From Candidatus Krumholzibacteriia bacterium (GTDB taxonomy: Bacteria > Krumholzibacteriota > Krumholzibacteriia > JAJRXK01), in NCBI GenBank assembly GCA_041484665.1, contig JBGPIA010000009.1:1-64000 (forward strand): a DNA stretch of 64,000 nt, read 5' to 3'. Numbering within the stretch: position 1 is the stretch's first letter; each line of letters begins with the position of its first letter. Made by a program: the position numbers and the translations under genes. The notes under the pieces were generated by a model that was given only the letters and a program-made list of their open reading frames with translations, searched no databases and had not been told where the DNA came from. Shown here piece by piece: positions 9,378-29,544 of this stretch.

Positions 9378-9565
9378 GGGCGGTTCAGCCGGCGGATCGC
9401 CGCACGCTCCGCTTGCGGGTCGCCGGGCCTGGCCCAGTCCCACAGTCCCCTCGCCGTGATGCGTGCTTCATCGTACCATACCCTGCGAACGCGGGTCACT
9501 CGGCGCACTCATGGCGCTGTCTCCCTCCCCCGCACTGACACACCCCACCGAGGACGGTAGCGACG

Positions 9566-10291: not shown

Positions 10292-10469
10292 CGCAGCCGA
10301 CGGCCCCAGCCTGACCCAGCGCGGCGCGAGCGGCAGACGCAGCAACACACCGGGGCACAGACGCAGCGCAAAGCGACCGCCGGTTGCAGCAGGAGGCGGG
10401 AGTGTCACGCTCCCGCCCGGGCCCGGCGTCCGCGCGCGTCTCGCGCGGACGCGCGGGGCGGCCGGTGCG

Positions 10470-12245: not shown

Positions 12246-12635
12246 TCCCGATCACCGTCCTGCAGGGGGTAGCGGCGCGGACGGCCGCAGCGGCGCCCGC
12301 GTCCGGACGTGGCCCGGCGATTTCCGGCGGCGTCCGGTGCCTCGTGTAGGGTCTGGAATCATCGTGCCGAGGTTTCGCGGCCAGGGCGTCACCACCGCAC
12401 CCGGCTTCACGCCCACCCTGGCCGCGATTGTCAGCAGCGCGTCTGCACCATTCGACGCGCCGGGCGGCGAAAAGGTTCCGTCCGGCCTGCCGGCCAGGGC
12501 GGCGGTCGCTGCGGCGCTCCAGGTCCAGCCTCCCGCGCCGCGTGGCGGCGCAGGGTGGGCGTGACGGGCGGCGCCTGCACCGGTGGCGTGGGGAACACGG
12601 CGGCGCTTCGCGCGACAATCCAGGGGGCGGGCCAG

Positions 12636-12740
12636 TTGTCCGGGGCTGTCGACCTATGCTACCCTCGCACTGACCGCTTCCTTTACCGACGGAGCCCCAA
12701 CACCTACCGACGGAGCCGCACCACCCGCCACCCGCCACCC
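12636..12740 (+). promoter_or_regulatory. Putative promoter and direct-repeat operator of the cohesin-dockerin operon
   Basis: TTGTCC (12636) -18 bp- TACCCT (12660) with an extended TG; TACCGACGGAGCC at 12684-12696 and 12705-12717; about three CCACCCG units at 12721-12740. Confidence 0.4.
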
Positions 12741-12827
12741 ATCACCGGTCTCGATCCAGAACCGGCGCGTTCGTGAGGCCTTGGGGCGGCTTGGAGCTTT
12801 GCCCCCACCACGCGCCCGAGGAGGCTC

Positions 12828-13823
12828 ATGAGGCGTCGTCAGCTCCACAGCGGACTGCAGCGCGCGCTGGTCGGCTTGTGGATCGCGATCGGGACGGCAG
12901 GGGCGCTCCCGGGGCCGGCGCGCGGCCAGAGCGCGCCGGCCGTGCCGGAGGATCCGGCTGCTTTCCCGCGTGAGCGCATCCTCGAGTCCGAGCAAACAGC
13001 GCGCGCCTGGATGACGGCCGCGGCTGCCGCAGCGCAGGAGCGCGCAGCGCAGCGCCAGCGGACGCAGGCGGCGCAATCCAAGGGCACGGCGGAGGCGCTG
13101 CTCGCACGCGGCGAGCCCTTGAGCGTTCCCGTGCTCGCCGCCTCGGGGGCAGCGCGGGCGGTCATCACGTACACGCGCCCTTCACCTCGGGCAGGCCTGC
13201 AGGCGACCGCGGAGATCCTCGGTAGCGGCGGGCAGGCGGGACGCAGCTTCGCCGTGGTGCCGTTTCGTGATTTCCTCGTGAGCGAGGACGGCTCCTCGCT
13301 CGTCGCGGTCGGCAACGACCTGGGCTTCGTGCTCACCGACGGCGACCTGTCGCTGCGCCTGGTGTTCTACGACGGGTCCGGGCGGGAGGTCGGACGTGAC
13401 GAGGGCACCGATCTCTCCCCGATCCGCTCGCTGGTCCTGCTCGACCGCAATCGCATCCTCGTCGTCGGCATCCCCGGGCGGGTCCTTGCCTACCGGCTCG
13501 CCGACGGCACGCGGACGTGGACGGTGGCAACCCAGCCGGATTGGGTTTCCAACGTCACGCTGCTGCCCGGCGAGCAGCGCATCGCGGTGGTGAGCGCCCG
13601 CGCCAGCGCCGCACGCCTCCTGCTGTTGGACCCCTCCGGTCAGACCATCGCCGTTCGGCCCTACGCCGGCCGCATCGAGGGGTCCGGCCGGATCAGCGCG
13701 TCCGCCGACGGGAGCCTGCTCGCGCTGGAGGACGTGGTGGGCGCCGGTGCGCAGGGTGGCGGGTCCGTGGTCCACCGGATCCTGGACGCGCAGAGCGGGG
13801 AGGTGCTCCGTGAGCTGCGCTGA
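12828..13823 (+). CDS. Secreted hypothetical protein with partial beta-propeller (PQQ/WD-like blades); gene 1 of the operon
   Basis: GAGGAGG RBS; signal peptide ending ARG-Q; blade-like segments VSEDGSSLVAVG, YRLADGTRTW, SADGSLLAL, LDAQSGEVL. Confidence 0.65.
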   Translation: MRRRQLHSGLQRALVGLWIAIGTAGALPGPARGQSAPAVPEDPAAFPRERILESEQTARAWMTAAAAAAQERAAQRQRTQAAQSKGTAEALLARGEPLSVPVLAASGAARAVITYTRPSPRAGLQATAEILGSGGQAGRSFAVVPFRDFLVSEDGSSLVAVGNDLGFVLTDGDLSLRLVFYDGSGREVGRDEGTDLSPIRSLVLLDRNRILVVGIPGRVLAYRLADGTRTWTVATQPDWVSNVTLLPGEQRIAVVSARASAARLLLLDPSGQTIAVRPYAGRIEGSGRISASADGSLLALEDVVGAGAQGGGSVVHRILDAQSGEVLRELR

Positions 13824-15981
13824 CAGCATCCGGTCGTGGCGCTTCTTCGCGGGACCACCGCCCTGGCCGTTGCGGTTCTCGCCAGCCCTCGTGATCCCCT
13901 GGCTGCTGTGCCCGTCGCTCGGGGAGGCCCAGCTGACGTTTCCCGTGCCCTATCCCAACGCCGCCTCTCGCATCGAGGCCGCCAGCTTCATGGAGGACCA
14001 CGGCAGCTGGCACGCCGGGTGCGACCTGCCGCGCACCGCCACGGATTCGACGGTGGTCGGCGCCCGCACCGCCACGGTCGACAACATCATGACGTCGGTC
14101 GGCTTCAACAATCTGTCGATCATCCGCAACGAGAACTCCGCGCGCGTGGGGCCCTGGTCGGTCAAGGTGAACTCGGGCGGCACGCTCCATATGCTGGACA
14201 TCTTGAAGGTGCGGCGCGTCACGCCGGCCAAGCCGGTCATCACCTACACCGTGCTCACGGTAAACGAGTCGCCGGCGAACTCGGGCAATAGCGACGGAAC
14301 GGTGCTGCTCGTGGTGGGCTCGCCTACGGCTGGCGACGCGATCGTGGTGGGAGACGTGCTGGCGGTGGACTACGCATTCTACGGCGGTCAAGTCCAGCAG
14401 ATCGTGGCGCAGGCGGCCGGCCCGCCCGTTGAGTACGACTGGTACGCCCACCTGGAGAAAGTCTACACGTACGTCGCCTGGCGCGGCTATCCCGCCACCG
14501 CCGCCAATCGCATGTACGCCCAGACCAGCCCTGCGCCGCCCGCCGAGCGCGCGGCCCACAGCGTGACGAATGCCGTCGCGTTCGCCAATATCCAACAGGG
14601 CGCCAGCTATGGCACGGAGCCGCTGCACGTGCACTACACCCTCAGCCAGACCCTGAACACCCCGGCCAGCGCCATGAACCCCCTCAGTGGCCGGTTCGGC
14701 GCGATCAACGATCCCCAGAACAACCGCCCGCTGGTGCGTGCCTTCGCCTTGCGGCGCTCGGGGACCAATACGTTGCTCAATGGCAAGCCGCTGTTCGGTG
14801 ACATCGATGTCTTCCTCGAGGCGCGCGACAACATGGGCGCCACCGAGCAGGCGCCCGACGGCGACGCCAACAACATCCGCGAGGCCGGCGTCTACAACGC
14901 GGGCTACTACCTCGATCCGATCATGCACGGCGTTTCGATCCTGGGCACGCAGGCCAAACCGCTGATGATCATCATGTCGTCGACCGGCATCGATACGACG
15001 CCGCCGGGATCGACGGTCGCGGTCGCCCTCGATCCGCAGTTCCGCATCGACATCAACACCAATTATGACGTGTGGGTATCCCACGTGAACGCCAACGCCA
15101 CGCGACTGTGGCGGACCAATGCCTGGGGCTTCGATCCGGCCGGTTTTCCCGATGGAACGAACAAGACGACCACCAACGTCAACATGGACGTCCTGTTCCC
15201 CGATGGCGTCTACAAGGTAGGGGGCCGGGCACGGGACCAGGTCGGCTTCGGGACCGACAAGGACACGCTGGTGACCGTCGACAACTTCCGTCCCTACGTG
15301 CGGAAGGTCACGGTCACCCAGCAAGGCCTGCCGATCTACATCGCGTCGTGGGAGCTCGCCAGCAACAAGCTGGACCTGATCGCGCCCCTGCTCAAGGACC
15401 GCCAGCTCGGGTTCGCGACCGGGAACATCCCGATCGTGTTCAAGGTCATCGTCAGCGAGAGCGTGGCCCTGGACACCACGGTTGCGTTCCTGGGGTCGAC
15501 CGCGTTCACGCCGCCCGGGTCGCCCAAGACCTACCAGATCCGCTTCGACCCGGCGAGCGCTCTGAAGTACGATCCGCAGGGAGGCGGCGCGACGAGCGGA
15601 GCCGATCTGATCGCCATCCAGATCGATTCGCTGGCCACCACATTCAAACACCTGGACACCCTGTGCGGATCAGCGACCATCGCCAGCCCGGCCGGAGTCG
15701 GGCTGCCGACCTACGACGGTGACGCGGTGCTGGTGGTGGACCTGGAGGATCTGTCGCACGACGGCACGGGGCCGGCGGGCGGTGGCGCAGGCAACCGACT
15801 GCTCCAGATGGATTTCACCGATTACGTGGCGGCCGCCAACCAGATCGACCCTTCCACGCTGCTGACGCGCAACTCGGCCACGGGCGCCATGCGCGGGACA
15901 CCCGGTGCCGACAAGGTCCACCGCTTCCGGATCGACACGCAGGCGACCAAGATCCAGATCACGACGGAGCAGGCGCCATGA
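13810..15981 (+). CDS. Secreted M23 (LytM-like) metallopeptidase-domain protein with a large internal insertion and C-terminal beta-sandwich domains; gene 2
   Basis: GTG at 13810 after GGAGG, overlapping gene 1 by 14 bp; signal-like N-terminus; HAGCD (HxxxD), WYAHL, LHVHY (HxH) and MNPL in canonical M23 order. Confidence 0.7.
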   Translation: MSCADSIRSWRFFAGPPPWPLRFSPALVIPWLLCPSLGEAQLTFPVPYPNAASRIEAASFMEDHGSWHAGCDLPRTATDSTVVGARTATVDNIMTSVGFNNLSIIRNENSARVGPWSVKVNSGGTLHMLDILKVRRVTPAKPVITYTVLTVNESPANSGNSDGTVLLVVGSPTAGDAIVVGDVLAVDYAFYGGQVQQIVAQAAGPPVEYDWYAHLEKVYTYVAWRGYPATAANRMYAQTSPAPPAERAAHSVTNAVAFANIQQGASYGTEPLHVHYTLSQTLNTPASAMNPLSGRFGAINDPQNNRPLVRAFALRRSGTNTLLNGKPLFGDIDVFLEARDNMGATEQAPDGDANNIREAGVYNAGYYLDPIMHGVSILGTQAKPLMIIMSSTGIDTTPPGSTVAVALDPQFRIDINTNYDVWVSHVNANATRLWRTNAWGFDPAGFPDGTNKTTTNVNMDVLFPDGVYKVGGRARDQVGFGTDKDTLVTVDNFRPYVRKVTVTQQGLPIYIASWELASNKLDLIAPLLKDRQLGFATGNIPIVFKVIVSESVALDTTVAFLGSTAFTPPGSPKTYQIRFDPASALKYDPQGGGATSGADLIAIQIDSLATTFKHLDTLCGSATIASPAGVGLPTYDGDAVLVVDLEDLSHDGTGPAGGGAGNRLLQMDFTDYVAAANQIDPSTLLTRNSATGAMRGTPGADKVHRFRIDTQATKIQITTEQAP

Positions 15982-17792
15982 GCAGGACGCGAGCGGCTCT
16001 CGTCGCACTGCTGACGTCCGCGCTCGCTGCGGCGTCCCTGCTCTGGCCTGCACAGGCCTTCGCCCAGCTCCTGGGCGACGGCAACGCGGACGGCGCCGTT
16101 GACTTCCACGATGCCGAGCATATCGCCGACTTCGCGTTCGGCTACATCGCGTTCGTGAACAATCCGGCCAATGCCGATGTGAACCGTGACGGGATCGTCG
16201 ACGTGCGAGACGCGCTGGCGATCGGGCAGGCAGGAGTGACGCCGCTGATCCTGTTCACCAATCCGTCATCCAATGACGCGGTGGTCAACGACTCCACGGT
16301 GGTGGTGAAGGGCGTCGTGCTGGTGCACTCGCTCACCAGCATCAGCGCGTTCACCATCAACGGCAGTCCGGTCGCGCTCAACAACGGAGCGTTCGCCCAG
16401 CAGATCCAGCTCGTCGGCGGCCAGAACATCGTCACCGCCAGCGCGACGGAGGCCATCTTCGGGCAGAATAGCCAGCGCCAGCTGCGTATCCACTACCTGA
16501 AAGTGAGCAGCCTGTCCGTTCCGCGCGGCCGCCCGGGCGACACGGTGACGATCAACGGCGCCGGGTTCGACCCGGCGCCAGGCAAGATGTTCGTGTTCTT
16601 CTATCCGAGCAAGCCCGCGACCATCAACAGCCTCACCGCCACCACCATCCAGGTGACGATCCCCAACGACGTCGGCACGTTGAAGCCGGGCGAGGACGGG
16701 ATCACGGTGGTGCGCAAGGCCAAGAACGGCAACCTGGTGCCGACGAAGAAACCGGCCGCCTTCTTCCCGCGGCGCCACGAGCAGATCCAGAACCACGCCA
16801 TCGATCCCGACTCGGTGAAGACGGTGCAGCAATGCACCGCAGCGGGCGGCCAGATGATCAACGGCTTCTGCATCCGGCGCATCGCCATGCGGCCGAACCT
16901 GAACGCGACGGGCGGCTTGCAAGGGCTCGCTACGGTTGCCCCGCCCACCAACGTCACGAGCACGCCGGCCATCGTGCCGGCGCAGGCGGGCAGCAGCCCC
17001 GGGCTGGCCGAGATCGAAATGGACACCGGCTGGTTCTACACCGAGAGCTACTACGCGTCGGATGCGATCGTGCAGGGAACGTTCCCGCTGCTGGCCGGCG
17101 TGCTGGCCGCAGACTTCACCCATACGCCCATTGGTACTGGTTCCTACGACGTCACGACCATCCTCGACGATCGCAATCCTGCGCCGCTGATCTACCTGCA
17201 GAATCCGCCGGACGGACTGCAGACCCAGGCGGCGTCCATCAGCGTCTACGGAAGCGTCAACAACAGCTCGGTCACGATCCAGAATCAGTCGATCCCGTAC
17301 ACGATCACCGTCGGAACGAACATCACGTACTTCCAGGCGAACGTGCCGCTCAAGGTCGGCGCAAACACCATTGTCGTCACGGCCACGGACGCGCTGAACC
17401 GGACCGCGACCGCCACCCGGACCGTGACCCGCATCCCGCTCGTGACGATCAAGTACCGCATCCAGGAGCTCGAGCCCCAGATCACCCCGGGCGGCGCCGA
17501 TCCCGACCCTGCGAAGAAGAACGCCTCGGGGATCAACCTCGCAAGCCTGCTCATCCTGCTCAACGGCAACACGGTTCCGATGAGCTCGCTGGTGTTCAAG
17601 GACAACGAGGCGGGCAGCGTCGCGTTCGATCCGGGCGATCTCAGCGTGAAGCGCTACGACGTGACGGTGGAATTCAAGCCGGGGATCACCGAGCTCAACA
17701 ATGGGCTCAACTCGACGCTGGCATCGTGCCGCGACAATGCCGGCAATCAGATGATGGCGCCGGAGGTGGCGAGCTTCAATGCGAACTACTAG
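15978..17792 (+). CDS. Secreted protein with N-terminal dockerin-like domain plus Ig-like and IPT/TIG domains, 604 aa; gene 3
   Basis: Signal peptide AFA-Q; duplicated Ca-loops GDGNADGAVDFHDA and ADVNRDGIVDVRDA; GRPGDTVTINGAGF (IPT); L..G.N.I.V.A Ig-like modules; ATGA overlap. Confidence 0.8.
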   Translation: MSRTRAALVALLTSALAAASLLWPAQAFAQLLGDGNADGAVDFHDAEHIADFAFGYIAFVNNPANADVNRDGIVDVRDALAIGQAGVTPLILFTNPSSNDAVVNDSTVVVKGVVLVHSLTSISAFTINGSPVALNNGAFAQQIQLVGGQNIVTASATEAIFGQNSQRQLRIHYLKVSSLSVPRGRPGDTVTINGAGFDPAPGKMFVFFYPSKPATINSLTATTIQVTIPNDVGTLKPGEDGITVVRKAKNGNLVPTKKPAAFFPRRHEQIQNHAIDPDSVKTVQQCTAAGGQMINGFCIRRIAMRPNLNATGGLQGLATVAPPTNVTSTPAIVPAQAGSSPGLAEIEMDTGWFYTESYYASDAIVQGTFPLLAGVLAADFTHTPIGTGSYDVTTILDDRNPAPLIYLQNPPDGLQTQAASISVYGSVNNSSVTIQNQSIPYTITVGTNITYFQANVPLKVGANTIVVTATDALNRTATATRTVTRIPLVTIKYRIQELEPQITPGGADPDPAKKNASGINLASLLILLNGNTVPMSSLVFKDNEAGSVAFDPGDLSVKRYDVTVEFKPGITELNNGLNSTLASCRDNAGNQMMAPEVASFNANY

Positions 17793-18696
17793 CAGCCACA
17801 GCGCTGTCCGGTCCGCACTCGCGCTGCTCCTGACGATCAGCGCGGTGCTGGCGACGGCGCTCCCGATCGTGGGTCGCGCGCGCGCGGCGCAGCCGGGCGC
17901 CCTGCCAGCGGCCCACCCGGCCCACAATGACGGGCGCGTTCTGCAGCTCGACGCCGCGGACCGACTGGCGGCCGTGATGGAGGCTGCGACAGCGCCCGGG
18001 CTGGACGCCGTCTCCGTGCTGAGCCAAGCGGCCATGGACGCCGACCCCTGGGTGCAGTCCACGGCGATCGTGGCCTTGGGAGAGCGTAGCGCCAACGCGC
18101 AAGAGCGGCAGGCCGCAGCGCAGGGCTTGCAGTCTCCACTGGGGTCTGCCGATCCGAGGGCGCGCGAGATGGCAGCGGTGGCCGCAGGACGCCTGGGCGC
18201 CGTGGAGCTCGTCGAGTTGCTTCTGCCACTGGCAGCAGACCCCGAGCCGCGCGTGGTGTCGCAGGCGCTGGCGGCGCTGGCGGCGCTGCGGGACGTGCGA
18301 GGGATCCCCGCCGCGACGCAAGCGCTCGCGCTCGCCGACGAGGGCGTGCGCCAGCGCGCTCTGCTCACGCTCGCCACGCTGGGGAGCGGCGCAGCCACCA
18401 GCCCGGCTGCGCAGGGCACCGGCACGGCCTTGCCTTACGATCCCACGGTGCTTGCGCGGGAGCTCGACCGTGCGGTGGGAGCCGTGACCGAGCTGGCGCA
18501 CGACCCTGGCGCTTCCACCGTCGTCCGCCAGCACGCCGTCCTCACCCTGGGCGCGCTCGCCGCGCCCTCCGCGCGCGCGGCACTCGACGCGATCGCGAAC
18601 GGTGCCGACCCGCTGCTGGCGGCCCAGGCCCGGCTGGCCCTGGCGCGTTCGGGCATCCCGCCGCGGATGCCGAACGCTCAGGAGGAACAGCCATGA
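17779..18696 (+). CDS. HEAT-repeat protein with signal peptide or membrane anchor, 305 aa; gene 4
   Basis: Repeats DADPWVQSTAIVALG, SADPRAREMAAVAAG, DPEPRVVSQALAAL and DEGVRQRALLTL; hydrophobic N-terminus ending ARA-A. Confidence 0.8.
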   Translation: MRTTSSHSAVRSALALLLTISAVLATALPIVGRARAAQPGALPAAHPAHNDGRVLQLDAADRLAAVMEAATAPGLDAVSVLSQAAMDADPWVQSTAIVALGERSANAQERQAAAQGLQSPLGSADPRAREMAAVAAGRLGAVELVELLLPLAADPEPRVVSQALAALAALRDVRGIPAATQALALADEGVRQRALLTLATLGSGAATSPAAQGTGTALPYDPTVLARELDRAVGAVTELAHDPGASTVVRQHAVLTLGALAAPSARAALDAIANGADPLLAAQARLALARSGIPPRMPNAQEEQP

Positions 18697-20138
18697 AACG
18701 AGGCTTGGTGTGCCGGGTCGGTGCCACAGTGGCGTGCGCTCTGGCCCTGGCCGTGGCGCCTGCGCGGCGGGTAAACGCGGCGCCCGGCGACGTTGCGCTC
18801 GTGCTGCCCAACTTCGAGCCTGCCAAGGGCACGCCGTTCGATGTCGGGCTGAAGATCGATACTGGGACGACGGCCCTGGGCGGCTACGAATGCGTGCTGC
18901 AGTTCGATCCGGCCGTGCTCCAGTTCCTGTCGGCCACTGCGGCGGGTGCCCCTGGGTTCAGCGATCCGGTGCGGGTCGCCTCGGCCGGCGCAGCCACGGG
19001 ATACCTGCGCCTGGGTGCCTACCAGCGCGTCTCGCGGACGCAGCCCGTGGGCCAGAACACCCTTGCCACGCTGCACTTCAAGGCCATCGGCCTGCCAGGC
19101 TCCAGCTCCGGCCTGGATCTGTCCGTCCTCAAGCTGCTCACCCCCGAGCTGGACGATGTCCCGTCGAATGCCATCGACGCGGCGATCGTGGTCAACCTCC
19201 TCCCCCTGGGAGACGTGAACGGCGATGGCGTCGCCAATCAGGTCTCCGATGCCGTGTTCCTGACGCAGGCGCTGCTCGGCTTCCAGGTGCTGACCGCGCC
19301 GGAGAGTTCCTCCTCCGACATCAACGGCGACGGTGCGCCGCAGACCGTGGCGGATCTGGTTTTCCTGGTGAACGTGCTCCTGGGGTTGCAGACCCCCATC
19401 GCCAAGGCGACCGCGAGTGGGACGCTGCTGCTGGCCTCGCTCGGCGGACCGCAGGCGGAGGGCGATTGGCTGCTGGTGCCGGTACGGCTGCCCAGCGGCG
19501 AGACGCTGGGGGGTGCCCTGCTGCGTCTGGCGCTCGATCCAGGACGCCTGGAGATCGGCACTCCGCGTCTCGGCCCGCGCGCCGCACGCATGCAGGTCAC
19601 CACCGCGCAGAAGGGCGGGGAGCTGATCGTCCTCGTTGCCAGCCCGGAGGGCGCGCGCGTCGCGGCAGGGGACTCGCCGCTGCTCTGGTTGCCGGTGCGT
19701 CCGACTCGGGTCGACGCCCTGGCCGGCGACCTGACGGCCATGCGCTCGTCAGCCGTCACGGCCCTCACCCTGCGGGTTGCCGACGCCGCGGACGCCGCCG
19801 GCGCCCGGCGCGTGGTGGACATCGCCGCCGACGGCGCGGAAATCGCCGCGATGCCCGCGCGCTTCGCACTGCACGACAACGTTCCCAACCCATTCAACCC
19901 CCGCACGGAGTTGCGCTTCGACCTGCCGCAAGCCGGTCGCGCGCGGCTGGCCATCTATGATGTGACGGGGCGCAGGGTGTGCACGCTGCTGGACCGGGAG
20001 CTGCCCGCTGGCGGCTACCGTCTGCCTTGGGACGGGACCGATGGACGCGGCATTGCCGTTGCCAGCGGGGTCTATCACGCGCGACTGGAAATCGCGGGTC
20101 AGGCGCCTGCGACGCGGAAGCTGGTGCTGGTGCGATGA
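18693..20138 (+). CDS. Secreted cohesin + dockerin + cohesin-like + FlgD-Ig protein (adaptor scaffoldin-like), 481 aa; gene 5
   Basis: Cohesin pattern GTPFDV...LGGYECVLQFDPAVL...LATLHFKA; dockerin GDVNGDG...SDINGDG; second cohesin-like VPVRL...LGGALLRLALDP; C-terminal PNPFNP...WDGTD...ASGVY. Confidence 0.8.
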   Translation: MKRGLVCRVGATVACALALAVAPARRVNAAPGDVALVLPNFEPAKGTPFDVGLKIDTGTTALGGYECVLQFDPAVLQFLSATAAGAPGFSDPVRVASAGAATGYLRLGAYQRVSRTQPVGQNTLATLHFKAIGLPGSSSGLDLSVLKLLTPELDDVPSNAIDAAIVVNLLPLGDVNGDGVANQVSDAVFLTQALLGFQVLTAPESSSSDINGDGAPQTVADLVFLVNVLLGLQTPIAKATASGTLLLASLGGPQAEGDWLLVPVRLPSGETLGGALLRLALDPGRLEIGTPRLGPRAARMQVTTAQKGGELIVLVASPEGARVAAGDSPLLWLPVRPTRVDALAGDLTAMRSSAVTALTLRVADAADAAGARRVVDIAADGAEIAAMPARFALHDNVPNPFNPRTELRFDLPQAGRARLAIYDVTGRRVCTLLDRELPAGGYRLPWDGTDGRGIAVASGVYHARLEIAGQAPATRKLVLVR

Positions 20139-20728
20139 GAACACGCATGGCGATCGCGTTCTGCGCAGCGCTCGCGCTGCCGGGTGATGCCGGAGCGGCC
20201 ACGGTCGCGCGACTGGACCTGCCTGCGGCCGTGGCGCAAGCCGACCAGATCGTGCACGGACGGGTGGTCCGGTCGCAGCCGCTGTGGAGCGACGATGGCC
20301 TGCGCATCTACACGGACGCCACGGTCCAGGTCGACGAGACGCTGAAGGGCGGACCCGTCGCGACCGTCACGGTGCGCCTGCTGGGCGGGGAGATCGGGAC
20401 CGTCGGGCAGATCGTCGCCGGCGCCCCGCGCCTGGCGCCGGGCGAGGAAGTCGTGCTGTTGCTGCAGCACATCGAAGGACAGCCGGTTGCGGATCCGCCG
20501 CGCATCGTGGGATTGGCGCAGGGGCTCTACCGGATCGTCCGCCCGCCGCAGTCCGCACAAGCGCTGGCGCTGCGGGACCTTGGGGGACTTACGCTGGTCG
20601 ATCTCGGCAAGCAGGGGGCCTCGGCCGGCGCTGCGTCGCCCGCGGCCCAGGTCGACGCCGCCGACCAGGTTCCCCTCGGCGATTTACTGGCGCGGCTGCG
20701 CACGTTGCTCGCGGGAGGGTCGCGATGA
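20135..20728 (+). CDS. Small secreted beta-rich protein of the type found beside or fused to bacterial matrixins, 197 aa; gene 6
   Basis: ATGA overlaps at both ends; signal peptide AGA-A; pattern ADQIVHGRV...IYT...VDETLKG...GG..G...G.P...GEEVVLLL...GLAQG. Confidence 0.7.
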   Translation: MRTRMAIAFCAALALPGDAGAATVARLDLPAAVAQADQIVHGRVVRSQPLWSDDGLRIYTDATVQVDETLKGGPVATVTVRLLGGEIGTVGQIVAGAPRLAPGEEVVLLLQHIEGQPVADPPRIVGLAQGLYRIVRPPQSAQALALRDLGGLTLVDLGKQGASAGAASPAAQVDAADQVPLGDLLARLRTLLAGGSR

Positions 20729-23700
20729 GCCGCACGCGCGGATCGCGTCCAGCATGGCGTCCGGCTCTACGCCCGGCGCTCTGGCCCGCGGCCGCAGCGG
20801 TCGCGGCTGCCGCCCTGCTGCTCGCCACAGGCGGCCAACCGGCGCGAGCCTTCACGCGCCAGACCTTCCGCAACTCCTTCGGCACTCCGACCCACCTCTA
20901 CTGGCCGCCCGACGCCTTCCCCGTCAAGTACGTGCTCAACAGCGCGGGCACGCCTGACATTCCCGGCACCGGCGAATTCACCGCGCTGCGCAACGGCTTC
21001 CAGCACTGGGACGACGTCACGACCTCCACGGTCAGTTTCCAGGACAACGGCACCAGTGCCTCGGGGGTCTTGGGCAACGACGGGGTCAACCGCATGGTGT
21101 TCGTAACCAACGATCCCGACATGCACGGCACGGCCATCATCGCCCTCACGCTCGACACATATAACGCGATCGACGGGCGCATCCTGGACGCCGACATCAA
21201 GTACAACGAGGACTTCACGTTCGACGCCTCGGGCACTCCGCCGGGCGGGACCATCGATCTCGAGGCCGTCGCGACCCACGAGTCGGGACACCTGTTGGGG
21301 CTGGATCACAGCTTTCTCACCGCTGCGACCATGTATCCGTTCTACGCCTTCCCGCAGCGGACGCTCGATCCGGATGACATCGCCGGCGTCTCGAGCATCT
21401 ATCCGGATCCCACCTTCTACTCCACGACCGGACGGATCCGCGGCAGTGTCCGCACGCTGATCACGGACCGCCCGCTCTACGGGATCAACGCCGTCGCCGT
21501 CTCGGCGCTGGGCCAGGTTGACATCGCCTCGGCGCTCAGCGAGGACACCGGCGAGTTCGTCCTGCCCGGGCTCCTGCCCGGCTCGTACTACGTGCGGATC
21601 CAGCCCGTCAACAAGGCCAACCTCGGGCCGTACTTCCAGGGCGCCTTCGTCGATTTCACGCCCGTCTACTACAACAACGCGGCGGGCATCCCCCAGGCCA
21701 CGGCCGTGAGCGTGCCCGCCGGCGGCGAGGCGGCCAACATCAGTTTCCTTCTCCCGGATCGCGTGCCCCTCGTGCGGTTCGATGGCGTGGCGGAGACGAA
21801 CATCTTCTTCACGAATCCGGCCGGAGCCAACGACTGGTTCGCGGTGCGATTCAACGCGAACCTGCTGCCGGAGAGCTTCCAGTTGGACAGTTTCACGTTC
21901 GTCAACGGCGGGGGCGCCGTGAACGGCTACCGCCTCCTGGTCACCCCTGACACGTCGGGCAAGCCGAACCTGGCCAGCCCCTTCGCCGACGTCACTGGCG
22001 TCAACGCCACCGCCAGCCAGACCAAGAGCGTCGCGTTGGGCGGCATCGCGGTCCAGCAGCGGCAGACCCTTTGGCTGGTCATCAAATATCCGCAGGGGCA
22101 GTTCGCCTCACTGGGCGTGGACACCGACGGCATCGACTCCACGCCTGTGTTCGGGCTGACGGGCGACTCCTTCGCCAGCGGCGACGGGACGAACTGGCAG
22201 ACGCTGACCCTCAGCAGTGCGCTGGTCAACCTGGGCTTCACGCTCACGATCGTTCCCATCACGCCGCCGCCCAAGCCCCAGGTCAGCAGCCTCTCACCCG
22301 CCACGCTCAGCCGCGGGCAGACGGCCACGTTCACCGTTACGGGGCAAAACCTCCTCACTGGGCTCAACGCCTCCGTGAGCGGGACGGGCGTCACGGTGAA
22401 CTCGCTCACATGGCAGAGCAACAGCAGCGTCCAGCTTTCGCTCACCGCCGCCGCAGGTGCGGCCACGGGACCGCGGGATCTCACCCTCAACAGCCCCAAT
22501 GGCACGACCGTTCTGGCCCGCAGCCTGCTCACCGTGCTGCCCGCGATCTCGACCACGGAGATCCTGGCCGTCGAGAATACGCCGGCCCTGGGCGGCACCA
22601 CCGGCGTGCTCGTGGGCGTGCGCTTGACGAATACCTTGCCGATCGGCGGCTTCTCCTTCCGCCTGGCGTTCAACCCAGTGCGCCTGACCCCGGTATTGTC
22701 CACACCGCCGCAGGGCGTGGCGAACCCCACCACGCGCACGGCTGGCTTCGAGCTGCTCGGCGCTACGCAGATCTCGCCCGGCGTGCTGCTGTGCACCGGG
22801 ATCGCGGATCTGGTGGGTGGCAGTGTGAGCAGCGCCTTGCCGGCGGGGACCGGCACCGTCGTGAAGCTGTCGTTCGCGGTCGCGCCGGAGGACTCGCTGC
22901 TCACGTTTCCCATCACGCTGACCGCCGCCAATCTCTCCGACGCGACCGGCGCCACGCTGGTCCTGCCCACGCTGCAGGCGGGCTCGTTGCAGCTGAAAGA
23001 CTGGATCCTGGGCGACCTGAATCTCGACAGCCTGCCGTACACGATCGCCGACGCCCTCACCTCGGTGTCGGCGCTGATGGGCACGCTGACGCTGCAATCG
23101 CGGCAGTTGCTGGCCAGCGACGTCAATGACGACGGTGTGCAAAACAACGTGGCCGACACGGTCTTCCTGGTGAACGTGCTGCTGGGGCTGGAGGTACCGC
23201 TGGGCAAGGGCCTGGGCCCACAGGAGCCGCCGCCGGGCGCCCCGCCGGTCGCAGCGCCGCCCGAGTTGGCCTCGCCGTCTGGCTTTGCGTCGGCGCCCGT
23301 GACGCTGGCCGCGCGCGTGCTGGACGCTGGTACGCTCGCGATCGACGCCGACCTGCCGGTGCAGGTCGGTGGAATCCTGCTGCGGCTGGCGTTGTCGCCG
23401 GGCGCGCACGTGACCGGCGTCGAGGCTCCAGGCGCCCGCGACGGCGGGCTGGCCGGTGAGCTGCCCGTGCGCTGGAGCCAGCAGGGCGCAGCGGCGACCG
23501 TGCTGCTCTTGGGCTTGAGCGGCGAGCGTCTCGGCCCGGGCATGGGCACGCTGGCGAGGGTTCACGTGGAAGGCGGGCAGGCGCGGCTGCTGTCCGCGGA
23601 AGCTGCGAACGGCCAGGGCCGCACGCTGGCGACCACCCTGTCGGACACGCCGGCCTTGCCGCGGGCGGTCGCGCTGTCGAAGCCCGTTCCCAATCCGTTC

Positions 23701-23940
23701 AACCCGTTGACCACGCTTTGGCTCGAGCTGCCGGCGCGCGGCCGCGCCCGCCTGGCGCTGGTCGACGCGCGTGGCCGCCAGGTGGCGGTGCTGGTCGACG
23801 AGGTGCTGCCCGCGGGCCGGCACCGAGTCGAGTGGCGGGGGCAGGACGCCCAGGGCCGCGTGGTGGCGTCGGGCGTCTACTACGCGCTGCTCGATGCGAA
23901 CGGGACGCGCGTGACGCGCAAGCTGGCTCTGGTCCGATGA
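20725..23940 (+). CDS. Secreted matrixin (M10 metzincin) metalloprotease with accessory beta-domains, IPT, cohesin, dockerin and FlgD-Ig, 1071 aa; gene 7
   Basis: ILDADI, HESGHLLGLDH (21277-21309) and Met-turn ATMYP; carboxypeptidase-regulatory-like domain; cohesin LTNTLPIGGFSFRLAFNP; dockerin GDLNLD...SDVNDDG; C-terminal PNPFNP. Confidence 0.9.
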   Translation: MSRTRGSRPAWRPALRPALWPAAAAVAAAALLLATGGQPARAFTRQTFRNSFGTPTHLYWPPDAFPVKYVLNSAGTPDIPGTGEFTALRNGFQHWDDVTTSTVSFQDNGTSASGVLGNDGVNRMVFVTNDPDMHGTAIIALTLDTYNAIDGRILDADIKYNEDFTFDASGTPPGGTIDLEAVATHESGHLLGLDHSFLTAATMYPFYAFPQRTLDPDDIAGVSSIYPDPTFYSTTGRIRGSVRTLITDRPLYGINAVAVSALGQVDIASALSEDTGEFVLPGLLPGSYYVRIQPVNKANLGPYFQGAFVDFTPVYYNNAAGIPQATAVSVPAGGEAANISFLLPDRVPLVRFDGVAETNIFFTNPAGANDWFAVRFNANLLPESFQLDSFTFVNGGGAVNGYRLLVTPDTSGKPNLASPFADVTGVNATASQTKSVALGGIAVQQRQTLWLVIKYPQGQFASLGVDTDGIDSTPVFGLTGDSFASGDGTNWQTLTLSSALVNLGFTLTIVPITPPPKPQVSSLSPATLSRGQTATFTVTGQNLLTGLNASVSGTGVTVNSLTWQSNSSVQLSLTAAAGAATGPRDLTLNSPNGTTVLARSLLTVLPAISTTEILAVENTPALGGTTGVLVGVRLTNTLPIGGFSFRLAFNPVRLTPVLSTPPQGVANPTTRTAGFELLGATQISPGVLLCTGIADLVGGSVSSALPAGTGTVVKLSFAVAPEDSLLTFPITLTAANLSDATGATLVLPTLQAGSLQLKDWILGDLNLDSLPYTIADALTSVSALMGTLTLQSRQLLASDVNDDGVQNNVADTVFLVNVLLGLEVPLGKGLGPQEPPPGAPPVAAPPELASPSGFASAPVTLAARVLDAGTLAIDADLPVQVGGILLRLALSPGAHVTGVEAPGARDGGLAGELPVRWSQQGAAATVLLLGLSGERLGPGMGTLARVHVEGGQARLLSAEAANGQGRTLATTLSDTPALPRAVALSKPVPNPFNPLTTLWLELPARGRARLALVDARGRQVAVLVDEVLPAGRHRVEWRGQDAQGRVVASGVYYALLDANGTRVTRKLALVR

Positions 23941-26900
23941 GGGAAGGGACCGCCGTGCCGCACACCACCGAGCACCGCAACGCGCCCCGGTTGCACGCGC
24001 AGGCGCGACCCGCCGCGGCGCGTGCCGTAGCGCTGGCCGCGCAGCTGGCGTGTGCGGGAACCGTGGTGGCGTTCGGCGCCGATGCGCGCGCCGCCACGCG
24101 CGTTGGCGTGCCCACTGCCGCGCGCATTCCGCAAGTGGCCGCCACGGTTTCGCCCGCGGCCACGCCGCCGTGCACGATCTCAGTCCTGCCGGCGCTCACG
24201 CTCTCCAGGGGGCCGGACGCGCAGGCCAGTACCGCCGCACCCGCCGGCTTGGGTAGCGCTCCTGCGGCGCCGGCCGCTCCGCAGGCACCGCAGACCGTCG
24301 TCACCGACCCCACCGGGGACAACTTCAACCCGGCTGCCGACGTGACGACGATCGTGGCCGACCTGGCGGGGGGCAACATCACCTTCACAGTGTCCTTTGC
24401 CGCGCTCACCGTGCCCAACGTGGTCTGCTCCCTCAACCTCGACACCGACCAGAACGCTGGGACTGGACGCTTCCCGCCGGCCAACGGCGCGGCGTCGCAG
24501 GACGTCGGCGTCGAGTACGAGCTGTACCTGGACATCCAGAACGGGAACGCGCAGCCCCAGCCCATGTGCCTGGTGCTGGACGGCCCTACACGCGCCTTCA
24601 TCAACTGGTTCCCCATGACGATCGCCAGCAACACGGTGACCTTCACCGTGCCCCTGGCCACGTTGGGCAGCGACGACGGCAACATGAACGTGGCACTGGG
24701 GGCCGTCAACGTGACGGCCGGCCTATTCGCCGATCTGGCGCCCGACACCGGCCACGGCACGGTGGTCTCGGGCGGTGATACCACGCGGCCGACGGTGACC
24801 CTCTTCGTGCCCGAGAACGCCGCCACGGGTGTCCCGCGCGACACCGCGGTGAACATCAAGTTCTCCGAGCAGATCGCCGTGGCCTCGGTCAACGGCACCA
24901 CGCTGACGCTCAAGCAGGGCGTCACCCCCATCACCGGCACCGCGAGCCTGCTCTCCGGCAATCTGATCGCGCGATTCACCCCGTCGTCGCCGCTGGCGGC
25001 CAGCACGGTCTACACCGTCACGGCCACCACGGGTATCCAGGACCTGGCGCTCAACGCGCTCAACGGCAACGGCTCCGGCGGCAATTTTACCAGCACCTTC
25101 ACCACCGGCACCGCCAGCGCGCTGCCGCTGGTGGCGGCGGATGCCTACGGCGACGGCACCGGGCCCCACGACCTGGTCGCGCTGCGCATGTCCGAGACCG
25201 TGACCACCTTGACGTTCCGCGTGGATCTCTTCGGCCTCACCGCCAGCGACGCGTCGGCCTCCCTCAACCTCGACACCGACCGCAATCCGACCACGGGCCA
25301 TCGGCCTCCGGTGATCGGGCTGCCGACCCACGACATCGGTGTCGAGTACGAGTTGTGGATGGACATCAAGAACATCAACAACCGGCCGCAGCCGCGGGCA
25401 TTCCTGCTGAATGGGACGACGCGGGCGTTCGTGGGCCCGGAGTACCCCATGACGGTGGGCGCGAACTCCCTGCAGTTCGACGTGCCGGTCGCCGACATCG
25501 GGGAGCAGCAGGACGGCAGCATGGATATGACGCTGTCGATCGGGACGGTCGCGACGCCCACATTCAGCGACCATTTGCCCAATTCTGGCCATGTGAGCTT
25601 CATCACCGCCATCGATCGCGTGCCGCCGGCGGTGCTGTCGGTCGCGCCGCCCGCCGGCACGCAGAACGTCGACGTCAACACCAGCGTGATCGTCACGTTC
25701 GACGGAGCCCTCAATCCGACCACGGTGACGAGCTCCACGTGCACGCTGCGCAATATGAAGACGCTGGCGCTGGTGCCCTGCACGGTGACGCTCTCGGTGG
25801 GCAACACCGTGGTGACGGTGGATCCCACGCCCGCCCTCGCCGACAGCGTGCGCCACGAGCTGCACGTCACGACCGCCGTCAAGGATGTGGCGGGCAACGC
25901 TCTGAATGCGGAGTACGTGAGCGACTTCCGCACGCGGGACATCACCCGGCCAACGATCACCTCCACGCTGCCCTCGTCCGGGCAGACCGGGGTGGCCACC
26001 GGCTCAGTGATCCGGGTGAACTTCTCCGAGGCGGTCGCGGGCGTGGACCGCAACAACTTCAAGCTGCTGGCGGGGACGCTGAAGATCGCCGGCAATTACG
26101 CCCTGACCAACGCCAGCAAGGCCGCCACGCTCACGCCGCTGCTTCCCCTCACCGGCGCGACGACCTACACGGTGCGCGGAGAGACCACCATCCTCGACCT
26201 CAACGGCAACGCGCTCAACGGCAACGGCGCGGGCGGTCCCCTGGTGTACACCTTCACCACCGTGGCCGAGGCCCCCCACGATAGCCTCTACGCCGGCACC
26301 AGGGTCATCGCCCCCTACATTCCCACGGTCACCATCCCGGTGCGCCTGCGCAACACCTTCGACGTTGGCGGAGTATCGTTCCGGCTGGCCTTCGATCCTA
26401 CGCGGCTGACCTTCTCGGCGATCAACCGCACCCCCCGCACCCAGGGCATGGAGTACGTGAGCGCGACCAGCCCGTCGTCTGGCGTGCTGGCGGTCACCGC
26501 GCTGGCGCGCCTCGCTGGGTCGACGGGTACGCTCCTGGCCACCGGCACGGGATCGATCGTGGACGTGGTGTTCAACGTCAACACTGCGCAGCCCGCCGGC
26601 ACCACGTCGCTGACGCTCAGCGCCGCGGCGCTCTCCGAGCAGCGCGGCCTGGCGTCCAGCGTGCCTGCGGTGGTCGCCGGGTCGGTGGTACGCGATGTGA
26701 ACACCGGGGTGCCAGGGACCTTGCTCCCGACCCGGCCGCAGCTGGGTGAGCCGGCTCCCAACCCGTTCAACCCGCGCGTGACCATCCCGGTGCTGCTGCC
26801 GGCGCGGGGAGCAGCTCGTGTCGCGATCTACGACGTGCGCGGGGCGCTGGTGCGCGTGCTCCACAGCGGCGTACTGGAGGCGGGGACCACGGCGCTGTCC

Positions 26901-27008
26901 TGGGACGGCACCGACGGCCAGGGACGCGCCGCGGCCTCGGGTGTCTACATCGTGAAGCTGGAGGCCGCCACGGTGACCGACGTACGCAAGGCGGTGTTGG
27001 TGCGATGA
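23937..27008 (+). CDS. Large secreted multidomain protein: two D..GD beta-sandwich repeats, three Big_5/SbsA-like Ig domains, cohesin, FlgD-Ig; gene 8
   Basis: ATGA overlap; repeats DPTGD...SLNLDTDQNAGTG and DAYGD...SLNLDTDRNPTTG; three P.V...P..G...V......F...D..GNALN...F.T modules; cohesin LRNTFDVGGVSFRLAFDP; PNPFNP tail. Confidence 0.82.
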   Translation: MREGTAVPHTTEHRNAPRLHAQARPAAARAVALAAQLACAGTVVAFGADARAATRVGVPTAARIPQVAATVSPAATPPCTISVLPALTLSRGPDAQASTAAPAGLGSAPAAPAAPQAPQTVVTDPTGDNFNPAADVTTIVADLAGGNITFTVSFAALTVPNVVCSLNLDTDQNAGTGRFPPANGAASQDVGVEYELYLDIQNGNAQPQPMCLVLDGPTRAFINWFPMTIASNTVTFTVPLATLGSDDGNMNVALGAVNVTAGLFADLAPDTGHGTVVSGGDTTRPTVTLFVPENAATGVPRDTAVNIKFSEQIAVASVNGTTLTLKQGVTPITGTASLLSGNLIARFTPSSPLAASTVYTVTATTGIQDLALNALNGNGSGGNFTSTFTTGTASALPLVAADAYGDGTGPHDLVALRMSETVTTLTFRVDLFGLTASDASASLNLDTDRNPTTGHRPPVIGLPTHDIGVEYELWMDIKNINNRPQPRAFLLNGTTRAFVGPEYPMTVGANSLQFDVPVADIGEQQDGSMDMTLSIGTVATPTFSDHLPNSGHVSFITAIDRVPPAVLSVAPPAGTQNVDVNTSVIVTFDGALNPTTVTSSTCTLRNMKTLALVPCTVTLSVGNTVVTVDPTPALADSVRHELHVTTAVKDVAGNALNAEYVSDFRTRDITRPTITSTLPSSGQTGVATGSVIRVNFSEAVAGVDRNNFKLLAGTLKIAGNYALTNASKAATLTPLLPLTGATTYTVRGETTILDLNGNALNGNGAGGPLVYTFTTVAEAPHDSLYAGTRVIAPYIPTVTIPVRLRNTFDVGGVSFRLAFDPTRLTFSAINRTPRTQGMEYVSATSPSSGVLAVTALARLAGSTGTLLATGTGSIVDVVFNVNTAQPAGTTSLTLSAAALSEQRGLASSVPAVVAGSVVRDVNTGVPGTLLPTRPQLGEPAPNPFNPRVTIPVLLPARGAARVAIYDVRGALVRVLHSGVLEAGTTALSWDGTDGQGRAAASGVYIVKLEAATVTDVRKAVLVR

Positions 27009-27634
27009 CTGCGCGCGGCGGGCAGCGGGCGGCTGCGGCAAGGCGGGCGGTCGCACGAGGCAGCCTGGTCTGGCGGGCCCGGGTCCTGGTCTCCACTGTC
27101 CTGGTGCCGGCGGCCCTGACGCTGGCGGCATCTCCGGCGAGCGCCGACCTGATGTCCGTCGGGCAGATCTCCGCCTCCCGCAGCTCGCCCGAAGTCGTCG
27201 TCCCCATTGGACTGGTCAACTCGGGAGACGTTGGCGGCTTCGCGCTGCACCTCGTCTACGATGCAGCGCGCCTGGTGGCGTTGGACCCCCAGCCCGGCAC
27301 GCGGACCGCGTCGTTCGAGCTGTTCGGCGCCAACATCACGCGGCCCGGCGAGATCATCGTCACTGGAATCGCCGATTTCGTCGGTGGGGCAAACGTACCG
27401 CCGCTGGCGCCCGGGGACGGCCCCGTCGTCCTGCTGCGCTTCGCTCCGGCGCCCGGTACGCCCCCAGGGCTCGTCTCGCTGATCCTCGTCGAAGGGTCGC
27501 TCTCCAATCCCAGCGGCTCGCAGCTCACGCAGCCCTTGCTCGAGAACGGCTGGGTGATCCTCACCGGCAACGTGCCCTCTGCGTTGCAGGCCTGGGGAGC
27601 GGTCAAAGCCAACTTTGACGGGGCCTCGCGCTAG
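27005..27634 (+). CDS. Single-cohesin secreted protein with C-terminal WGAVK motif, 209 aa; gene 9
   Basis: Signal peptide ASA-D; VPIGLVNSGDVGGFALHLVYD...GDGPVVLLRF; ends VPSALQAWGAVKANFDGASR. Confidence 0.78.
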   Translation: MTARGGQRAAAARRAVARGSLVWRARVLVSTVLVPAALTLAASPASADLMSVGQISASRSSPEVVVPIGLVNSGDVGGFALHLVYDAARLVALDPQPGTRTASFELFGANITRPGEIIVTGIADFVGGANVPPLAPGDGPVVLLRFAPAPGTPPGLVSLILVEGSLSNPSGSQLTQPLLENGWVILTGNVPSALQAWGAVKANFDGASR

Positions 27635-29244: not shown

Positions 29245-29382
29245 GCCGCCACGCGCAGCCCGGGGGCAGGGGTGCAGGCGGGTCGGCTGACGCCCCCCCT
29301 GCGCCAAGCGGCATTTTCCGGGGCTGCGCGGGGGGTGGGCGTCCCGGGGGCCGAAAAACCCGGAAAAAACCGCTCGAATCGC

Positions 29383-29410
29383 TTGACAGGCCCTTTTTCC
29401 AGTGCAAGAT
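29383..29410 (+). promoter_or_regulatory. Putative sigma70 promoter for the HU gene
   Basis: TTGACA at 29383-29388, CAAGAT 16 bp downstream, A-tracts upstream. Confidence 0.4.
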
Positions 29411-29544
29411 GCTGCTGTGTCGAGTTCATCGAGGCGTTGCAGCTTCTTCTGCGATTGCGTGCCGCCGGGGTTGAACTCTCGACACGCTTGAAAACCTGGC
29501 CCCTCCAAAAGAGGCGGCATTCACCGTAGGAAATGGAGAGCTCA

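Follow-up and report, generated by a model that had tools for sequence, protein, structure and literature searches.

A nine-gene cohesin–dockerin operon with peptidase genes, type IX secretion tails and a candidate protease inhibitor in a Krumholzibacteriia bacterium

Results

Nine overlapping genes at one locus

Nine plus-strand open reading frames occupy positions 12828–27634 of a 64,000-nucleotide stretch of DNA (hereafter the window) from Candidatus Krumholzibacteriia bacterium (GenBank assembly GCA_041484665.1, contig JBGPIA010000009.1). The window represents contig C9 of a 54-contig, 5.45-Mb genome that has ~70% GC and is 93.65% complete. An earlier note, made from the sequence alone, had described the locus as an operon that joins cohesin and dockerin modules to peptidases, and had proposed that its products form a cellulosome-like proteolytic complex. 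Each junction between the nine frames is an overlap: six are 4-base ATGA overlaps (at 15978, 18693, 20135, 20725, 23937 and 27005) and two are 14 bases long (at 13810 and 17779). The gap-free, same-strand layout and the overlap positions given in that note were thus reproduced exactly from the sequence. Since the neighbouring gene upstream is divergent and the one downstream convergent, the nine genes stand as one block, and their features are as follows.

Gene 1 (P0001, 331 amino acids (aa)), 12828–13823, plus strand: exported beta-propeller-like protein
Gene 2 (P0002, 723 aa), 13810–15981, plus strand: divergent M23/LytM-like region (residues ~43–288), then beta-sandwich domains; no dockerin, no type IX secretion system (T9SS) tail
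Gene 3 (P0003, 604 aa), 15978–17792, plus strand: signal peptide, N-terminal dockerin (residues 33–82, 16074–16223), Ig-like domains; no catalytic domain, no T9SS tail
Gene 4 (P0004, 305 aa), 17779–18696, plus strand: exported HEAT-repeat protein
Gene 5 (P0005, 481 aa), 18693–20138, plus strand: cohesin 18798–19202, dockerin 19206–19388, cohesin 19410–19835, T9SS tail 19875–20135
Gene 6 (P0006, 197 aa), 20135–20728, plus strand: small exported protein of an unannotated family
Gene 7 (P0007, 1071 aa), 20725–23940, plus strand: M10 catalytic domain ~20902–21414 with HExxHxxGxxH at 21277–21309, CarboxypepD_reg and TIG domains
Gene 7, C-terminal half, plus strand: cohesin 22552–22995, dockerin 23002–23202, cohesin 23272–23679, T9SS tail 23677–23937
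Gene 8 (P0008, 1023 aa), 23937–27008, plus strand: an unnamed domain of ~135 aa in duplicate, three Big_5 domains, cohesin 26325–26687, T9SS tail 26757–27005
Gene 9 (P0009, 209 aa), 27005–27634, plus strand: signal peptide and one cohesin, 27170–27520; no T9SS tail

All nine frames show the coding pattern of this genome, with a GC fraction of 0.84–0.91 at the third and 0.46–0.58 at the second codon position. A 12-residue hydrophobic window (score 1.9–2.6) lies at the N-terminus of every product, in keeping with the signal-peptide-like N-termini previously proposed for all nine. Two of the starts are uncertain. Gene 2 is taken to begin at GTG 13810; if TTG 13870 were its start, the signal peptide would be cleaner and the overlap would vanish. 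In gene 8 the N-region is long, and other in-frame starts follow further downstream.

The operon DNA occurs in 24 listed sediment-metagenome runs, 12 of which hold at least half of the sampled words. From four runs that are not flagged as a possible source, short contigs with zero differences tile all 30 bins of the operon and bridge seven of its eight junctions, indicating that the layout is not an assembly artefact. Horizontal acquisition, which may or may not have taken place, was also weighed: the operon has the same GC content (0.66–0.73) as the genome, and no mobile-element genes were seen in its flanks. A scan for promoters and terminators was uninformative (1 and 3 sites, respectively, against 0.9 and 5.2 expected), and an Rfam search of the window returned no match.

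Six cohesin-like modules

The cohesins are supported to differing degrees. Against the curated Pfam Cohesin (PF00963) cut-off of 24.1 bits, the gene-8 module scored 40.3–44.5 bits, and the modules of gene 9 (21.2–22.1 bits) and the first of gene 5 (5a; 17.1–20.2 bits) fell below it. The remaining three, namely both modules of gene 7 (7a and 7b) and the second of gene 5 (5b), gave no direct Pfam Cohesin match even when scanned alone; BLAST relates them to gene 8 or to one another. The first gene-7 cohesin shares 42% identity with that of gene 8, and the gene-9 cohesin 35% with the first of gene 7 (E 8e-19). Module 5b aligns with the gene-8 cohesin plus its tail (37%, E 7e-25), and an alignment of the whole of gene 5 with P0007 residues 630–1071 (487 columns, 33%, E 1.6e-39) links 7b. 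The top solved matches of a profile of all six modules were likewise cohesins (3l8q, E 5.9e-4; 2xdh, E 3.1e-3).

The fold was compared by structure for one module, 5b. In the AlphaFold model of gene 5 the mean predicted local distance difference test (pLDDT) score is 69.7, and the second cohesin, the dockerin and the tail reach 74–94. P0005 residues 240–381 (pLDDT 80–94) adopt a cohesin fold, matching 5nrm_A with a Z of 12.7 and a root mean square deviation (rmsd) of 2.8 Å over 125 aligned residues; about 45 cohesin entries match this model at Z of at least 9.6, and it superposes on the cellulosomal cohesins 5nrm, 2vn5, 1aoh and 1ohz (Z 12.2–12.7). Because of this fold and the pairwise alignments, we regard the second copies in genes 5 and 7, which the earlier note had called degenerate, as real cohesins, 5b by its structure and 7b through the 487-column alignment. 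The assignment of cohesins to genes 5, 7, 8 and 9 also holds, through Pfam for gene 8 (and near threshold for gene 9 and 5a), the BLAST links and the profile.

Three dockerins and few others in the genome

The cut-off for Pfam Dockerin type I (PF00404, Dockerin_1) is 22.9 bits. The gene-3 dockerin scored 23.3–24.8 bits, in a protein that also matches Glucodextran_B (E 2.5e-14), and the gene-5 dockerin is borderline, with 22.2 bits in the protein scan and 23.2 bits in the six-frame scan. The gene-7 module is weak (13.5 bits, E 0.088, below the cut-off) and shares 44% identity with the gene-5 dockerin. The dockerins first proposed for genes 3, 5 and 7 are confirmed, with that of gene 5 at the threshold and that of gene 7 weak. 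Two canonical 12-residue D-x-N-x-D-G...D calcium loops are present in the gene-3 module. The gene-5 dockerin has two 13-residue loops, whose calcium-loop residues are invariant in its three orthologues, and in the model its helices 184–194, 202–207 and 219–229 (pLDDT 74–91) accompany these loops. The gene-7 loops are also of 13 residues, and the second is intact.

Across its own genome, Pfam counts five cohesin and four dockerin matches. A dockerin profile specific to the operon found nothing further in this genome except a weak match to a protein on contig C44, so that dockerins total about four or five. With so few in the genome, the modules appear to make up a small self-contained set and not a platform of cellulosome scale. 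Such low copy numbers are common in the phylum, where 88 of 208 genomes carry dockerins, mostly one to five each.

The contig C44 match belongs to a second mini-locus in the same genome. On this 6.5-kb contig (L060), two minus-strand genes (4173–4910 and 4995–6563) encode a protein that is open at its 5' end and combines dockerin, cohesin-like stretch and T9SS tail, and, after it, a 245-aa protein that consists of a lone cohesin. A further cohesin lies on contig C1 (L061) in a 2,900-aa protein (4787–13489, minus strand) with glucose/sorbosone dehydrogenase, PKD and laminin-G domains and a T9SS tail; beside it, at 12184–15267 (minus strand), is a 1,027-aa protein with weak matches to MtrC-like multihaem cytochromes and a T9SS tail.

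Type IX secretion tails

Genes 5, 7 and 8 share the C-terminal ending NPFNP...LVR, and their tails match the T9SS type A sorting domain. The gene-8 tail scored 25.8 bits with TIGR04183 (cut-off 23) and 44 bits with FlgD_ig (cut-off 27); that of gene 5 scored 30.4 bits with FlgD_ig. The gene-7 tail, with 22.4 and 20.8 bits, is under the cut-offs and aligns with the gene-5 tail. In the gene-5 model, the tail (residues 390–481) matches the PorU C-terminal domain (Z 10.2, rmsd 2.5 Å, 89 aligned). The genome also encodes SprA (484.5 bits summed, cut-off 200) and PorU (454.9 bits, cut-off 420); 46 of its 53 PorU-profile matches span only the last ~100 model positions and are tails on other open frames. 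Given the sorting tails and the presence of SprA and PorU, the cohesin proteins 5, 7 and 8 are most likely T9SS cargo retained on the outer membrane, and since the FlgD_ig tails are T9SS sorting domains, the anchor would be of the T9SS and not of the cellulosome type. The nearest matches to the tails bear Krumholzibacteria labels, and the organism probably belongs to an FCB-type candidate phylum. Genes 1, 2, 3, 4, 6 and 9 have signal-peptide-like N-termini and no T9SS tail. T9SS cargo is believed to fold in the periplasm.

Two further tail-bearing proteins are encoded within the window. One (34336–36351, plus strand; 671 aa) combines a lysyl-oxidase-like region and a PPC domain with a T9SS-type FlgD_ig tail and resembles a lysyl oxidase of bacterial type that serves as T9SS cargo. 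The other (3373–5808, minus strand; 811 aa) has TPR, purple-acid-phosphatase N and calcineurin-like phosphoesterase domains and a FlgD_ig tail.

An M10 metzincin and a divergent M23/LytM-like protein

The proposed M10 matrixin is borne out by gene 7, which matches Peptidase_M10 with 53.2 bits (cut-off 24) and has an intact zinc motif, HESGHLLGLDH, at residues 185–195, plus a Met-turn. All 17 aligned relatives retain the zinc-motif His, Glu, His and His as well as the Met-turn Thr. The mature N-terminus is predicted at residue ~43 and the catalytic domain starts at ~60, so that the ~20 residues past the predicted signal cleavage site are too few to accommodate a propeptide. In three of these 17 M10-like relatives (L084, L089 and L095), an additional N-terminal segment contains a D-x-(N/D)-G-D-G-C loop reminiscent of one calcium-binding loop.

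The M23-like peptidase of the earlier note corresponds to gene 2, an assignment that we make with qualification. Pfam Peptidase_M23 (PF01551) does not match P0002 at E ≤ 5, and it matches one of seven close relatives at E 0.054. Those closest to P0002 are long and contain VWA_4, Ig and T9SS tails, and in more distant relatives Pfam Peptidase_M23 lies just upstream of the common region; of these distant relatives, P0138 and P0140 pass the M23 cut-off and P0142 (25.0 bits) is below it. The family is rare, with six representatives at E < 1e-30 among 1.84 billion. Support for the assignment comes from motifs, profile alignment and fold. Residues H68/D72 (HxxxD), H214 and H273/H275 (HxH) are invariant in all seven family members, with an insertion of ~140 residues between HxxxD and the next His. 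Alignment of the P0002 family with the M23-bearing group by hhalign (probability 100%, E 2.5e-90) sets H214 and H273/H275 upon the catalytic His and the HxH of that group. In an exhaustive structural alignment against 48,161 chains, the 17 best matches all cover residues ~30–290 and are mostly LytM/M23 by title, with LytM 3nyy at Z 9.4 (rmsd 3.4 Å, 120 aligned), Csd3 at 9.0, StM23 at 8.8, LytM at 8.3 and lysostaphin at 7.5, against a background of 7–8; EnvC and DipM are also among the fold matches. A Foldseek search with the model returned Ig-like noise only, and the family profile found no M23 chain by sequence in the PDB.

We therefore describe gene 2, with qualification because the Z values are only modestly over background, as a divergent M23/LytM-like peptidase. 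It resembles LytM, lysostaphin, Csd3 and EnpA in its HxxxD, His and HxH motifs and, on a low-confidence model, in the fold of residues ~43–288, and differs from M23/LytM enzymes in the ~140-residue insertion, the lack of a Pfam match, the family-specific domain that follows and the propeller gene that is its partner.

Gene 1 has a weak PQQ_2 match (22.6 bits, under the cut-off), and its leads in an atlas of protein clusters are WD40/PQQ_2 (0.87–0.90). Gene 4, with a hydrophobic N-terminus, matches HEAT_2 (E 6.6e-14). Gene 8 matches Big_5 (E 3.6e-50), and its internal repeat (24300–24776 and 25140–25616, plus strand), of ~135 residues, 43% identity and E 2e-37, has no Pfam match and is followed in each copy by Big_5. 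Genes 1, 4 and 6 carry neither cohesin nor dockerin, and no protease that lacks cohesins of its own bears a dockerin. The absence of glycoside hydrolases asserted in the earlier note was upheld: the Pfam scan of the nine proteins found no catalytic glycoside hydrolase family at E ≤ 0.01, and also no carbohydrate-binding module (CBM).

Gene 6 is a candidate inhibitor of the gene-7 protease

Gene 6 belongs to a family that is unannotated. None of 28 members had a meaningful Pfam match, and none matched TIMP, NTR or Inh at E ≤ 5; the family profile found no solved relative by sequence. Its atlas neighbours are unnamed clusters from Myxococcota, Acidobacteriota and Krumholzibacteriota (0.97–0.98), and the nearest named clusters are TIMP/NTR (0.89, 0.84 and 0.82), which serve as leads only.

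The complex of mature gene 6 (residues 24–197) with gene 7 (residues 43–350) was predicted with an own alignment for each partner. The interaction prediction score from aligned errors (ipSAE) was 0.79, 0.82 and 0.82, against 0.01 for the best of three controls. The ipSAE mark is reached by 116 of 157 solved complexes and by 2 of 215 mismatched pairs, counts that are only approximate for this pair because custom alignments were used. At least 65% of the contacts were common to the runs, with pLDDT of at least 77 for the partners. On the protease, the modelled interface comprises the 99–107 edge strand and residues 144, 147, 152–153 and 163–164 (region numbering; add 42 for P0007), and the contacts include the zinc-motif residues E186, H189 and H195 (P0007 numbering). 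Gene 6 contributes the N-terminus of the construct (24–27) and loops 54–57, 83–97 and 111–116. In this prediction the gene-6 protein spans the catalytic cleft of the protease. The modelled geometry is that of an active-site-occluding inhibitor, from which we infer inhibition itself, and on this basis gene 6 would work like the AprI and TIMP inhibitors, a likeness of action that we do not extend to family membership.

Within the phylum, 62 of 208 genomes carry a member of the gene-6 family, repeatedly next to such proteases. An M10-like protease gene lies directly downstream of the gene-6 homologue in 6 of 11 short loci. At 20 further gene-6 loci, taken in rank order with 4-kb flanks, the protease gene is adjacent in 14 and within 3 kb on the same strand in three; the other three have none.

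Conservation and mosaic structure

A synteny search in relatives, suggested in the earlier note, did not recover the whole operon. Scans of metagenomes plus tblastn of the nine proteins on 56 loci gave no syntenic locus, and nearly all of the matches were to T9SS tails. Gene 5 has three full-length orthologues (52–61% identity). Orthologues of genes 2 (75%), 5 (57%) and 6 (57%) come from the same source, and the longest contig for each is of 18,218 bases; judging from these matches, the operon is probably conserved in one close relative, on this 18,218-base contig (genes 2, 5 and 6).

Two gene pairs recur on their own. Among 185,579 species genomes, the gene 1–2 pair has only two related loci (L058 and L059), in both of which the gene-1 homologue lies directly upstream; neither has any other operon member, and P0006 was not found in the genomes that carry them. 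Together with the gene 6–7 pairs described above, this indicates that the operon is a composite, in which pairs 1–2 and 6–7 recur elsewhere without cohesin or dockerin. In L059, from a metagenome-assembled genome (MAG) titled Candidatus Eisenbacteria, a gene at 421–3732 (plus strand) ahead of the 1–2 pair encodes a 1,103-aa protein with a Ser/Thr kinase, a STAND-type NTPase and TPR repeats.

Of the genes that flank the operon in the window, the convergent neighbour (27715–29520, minus strand) encodes 601 aa with an Rce1-like CAAX protease domain and DUF4214, and the divergent upstream neighbour (10470–12245) encodes 591 aa without a Pfam match.

Discussion

Cohesin–dockerin pairs are best understood in Gram-positive cellulosomes, and their role in Gram-negative, non-cellulolytic bacteria is largely a matter of inference. 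For the operon described here, the explanation that we favour, and consider reasonably probable, is that the exported proteins, three of which carry T9SS tails and cohesins, assemble on the outer membrane through cohesin–dockerin contacts into a small surface set that cuts protein or cell wall, and that gene 6 plugs the gene-7 metzincin before export. Proteins 5, 7 and 8 would fold in the periplasm, leave via the T9SS and remain on the outer membrane. The gene-6 protein, which has a signal peptide and no tail and may for that reason stay in the periplasm, would silence the propeptide-less protease there until its export. The canonical dockerin of the Ig-rich gene-3 protein would plug into a cohesin of protein 5, 7 or 8; proteins 5 and 7, each with a cohesin–dockerin–cohesin–tail cassette, could cross-link; and the free cohesin of gene 9 may cap, or be held by, a dockerin of 5 or 7. 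The substrate would be protein, peptidoglycan or both, for scavenging or for attack on other cells.

Several findings weigh against this explanation. Proteins 2, 3 and 9 have no T9SS tail, which leaves their route across the outer membrane unexplained, and GldM (TIGR03517) had no match in the 93.65%-complete genome, where the control search was equally silent. The M23-like gene-2 protein has no dockerin, the mean pLDDT of its model is 55.9 and the top Z, 9.4, exceeds the customary background of 7–8 only slightly. As regards the modules, the first gene-5 cohesin is modelled with low confidence (pLDDT 45–67), the gene-7 dockerin has a degenerate first calcium loop, and in proteins 5 and 7 hardly any linker separates the dockerin from the cohesin on either side. 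The gene-6 family has no conserved TIMP-type N-terminal residue (no Cys or Cys-x-Cys) and falls in no Pfam inhibitor family. Finally, searches of other genomes in the group gave no match for gene 2 (0 of 40), gene 3 (0 of 207) or gene 5 without its tail (0 of 207), and gene 9 has no homologue of 114–366 aa among 5.8 billion clusters.

The near-absence of linkers bears on an alternative that we think unlikely, yet the least so of those considered: the modules would not join different proteins but serve in cis as stalks or spacers that separate a working domain from its T9SS tail, with the operon being no more than a collection of co-regulated T9SS cargo and periplasmic helpers. Packing in cis is possible in proteins 5 and 7 because the dockerin is wedged between the two cohesins; FlgD_ig tails placed after a cohesin recur commonly in the protein database (P0043, P0049, P0080, P0087 and P0088 are among the matches), and gene 9 is an orphan. 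However, the canonical gene-3 dockerin lies at the extreme N-terminus of a protein without a cohesin of its own, and gene 9 and the contig C44 protein are lone cohesins. Both cases are difficult to account for unless there is a partner in trans. The invariance of the gene-5 calcium-loop residues in all three orthologues also speaks against a mere spacer.

A second alternative is the single machine of the earlier note, in which nine products made in coupled amounts would form one cellulosome-like proteolytic complex, with scaffold cohesins recruiting dockerin-bearing enzymes. Its modules, its peptidases and the operon-like packing were all recovered, and the tight gene overlaps, the six cohesin-like and three dockerin modules and the two peptidases are what such a machine would have. 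By contrast, the sole dockerin-bearing enzyme is gene 7, which already contains cohesins and an anchor; a dockerin is lacking from the M23-like protein, and genes 1, 4 and 6 have no modules at all; the genome as a whole yields four Pfam dockerins and no extras with the operon-specific profile; pairs 1–2 and 6–7 exist elsewhere without cohesin or dockerin; and gene 6 is predicted to sit at the protease active site and not to be a structural subunit. We hold the single machine to be decidedly improbable. The term cellulosome-like overstates the scale, since there are four Pfam dockerins and none is on the M23-like protein or on proteases without their own cohesins. Least likely of all, in our estimate, is that the set acts on the cell's own envelope, with the M23/LytM-like protein and the propeller as periplasmic remodellers of its peptidoglycan and the others as unrelated surface proteins on a shared promoter: gene 2 does lack a T9SS tail and a dockerin, EnvC and DipM are among its fold matches and many LytM-domain proteins are periplasmic cell-wall factors, but its nearest relatives, long and with VWA, Ig and T9SS tails, are exported cargo, it keeps all zinc ligands, and genes that overlap so tightly are likely to have a task in common.

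The operon shares with clostridial cellulosomes both module families, a cohesin (5b) that superposes on cellulosomal cohesins and the canonical calcium loops of gene 3. It differs from them in its lack of glycoside hydrolases and CBMs, in its Gram-negative-type host with a T9SS-tail anchor instead of S-layer homology (SLH) domains or sortase, and in having four Pfam dockerins genome-wide, with cohesin and dockerin interleaved within single proteins. Thus, the operon is not a cellulosome, if by this is meant many dockerin-tagged carbohydrate-active enzymes on a CBM-bearing scaffoldin. A closer parallel is provided by Ca. Stygibacter (Cloacimonadota) MAGs, for which a T9SS-anchored cohesin scaffold with dockerins on peptidases and glycosidases has been inferred (PMC8542988). 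Both systems have dockerins on peptidases and both are inferred from MAGs only. The Stygibacter system relies on a single 3,755-aa scaffoldin with tandem cohesins and CBMs and on scattered dockerin-tailed enzymes (PMC8542988), whereas the present one is a compact nine-gene operon with three small anchored cohesin proteins, no CBM or glycoside hydrolase and two conserved helper pairs.

The gene 6–7 pair has parallels of its own. Serralysins, of the M10 clan, are often co-expressed with periplasmic active-site inhibitors that are thought to protect the producer (PMC4070987). As with AprI/Inh and AprA (PMC4070987), the gene-6 product is small and exported, its gene adjoins that of an M10-clan protease, and it is predicted to bind the active site. 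The differences are that gene 6 has no sequence or Pfam relation to this family (0 of 28 members) and that the protease exits by the T9SS and not by the type I secretion system (T1SS). An inhibitor would be more clearly useful in a T9SS than in a T1SS setting, because of the periplasmic folding ascribed to T9SS cargo. In Listeria, the gene for a TIMP-like lipoprotein accompanies that of a metzincin (PMC8235301), a pairing that our locus resembles, with TIMP/NTR as the nearest named atlas clusters of gene 6. From the Listeria pair and from animal TIMPs, gene 6 differs in its atlas scores below 0.9, in having no conserved Cys or Cys-x-Cys, and in phylum and secretion route.

A bolder version of the favoured explanation, which we regard as possible if doubtful, would have the gene-6 family (62 of 208 genomes) be undescribed periplasmic safety-catch inhibitors of propeptide-less, T9SS-exported metzincins. 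The protease here would then have acquired a cohesin–dockerin–cohesin cassette and would polymerise head to tail with its paralogue on the outer membrane, and the Ig-rich dockerin adhesin and the lone cohesin would serve as chain ends of a self-assembling proteolytic surface lattice.

The openly accessible literature that was searched yielded no description of the operon, of the cohesin–dockerin–cohesin–tail cassette or of the gene-6 family. A T9SS-anchored cohesin–dockerin system has already been inferred for Cloacimonadota, as noted above; the new element is the inhibitor-like family of the gene 6–7 pair. With six cohesins, three dockerins and three T9SS anchors, the operon is a compact test bed in which a full binding matrix is feasible. 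Its most testable new element is the gene 6–7 pair, and the gene 1–2 pair, a propeller with an M23-like peptidase, may obey the same logic. The unannotated gene-6 family adjoins, on the upstream side, M10-like proteases in much of the phylum, and it is modelled confidently across the catalytic cleft. If it is an inhibitor, this would explain how a propeptide-less protease can fold harmlessly in the periplasm before T9SS export, and gene 6 would add a new protein scaffold for metzincin inhibition.

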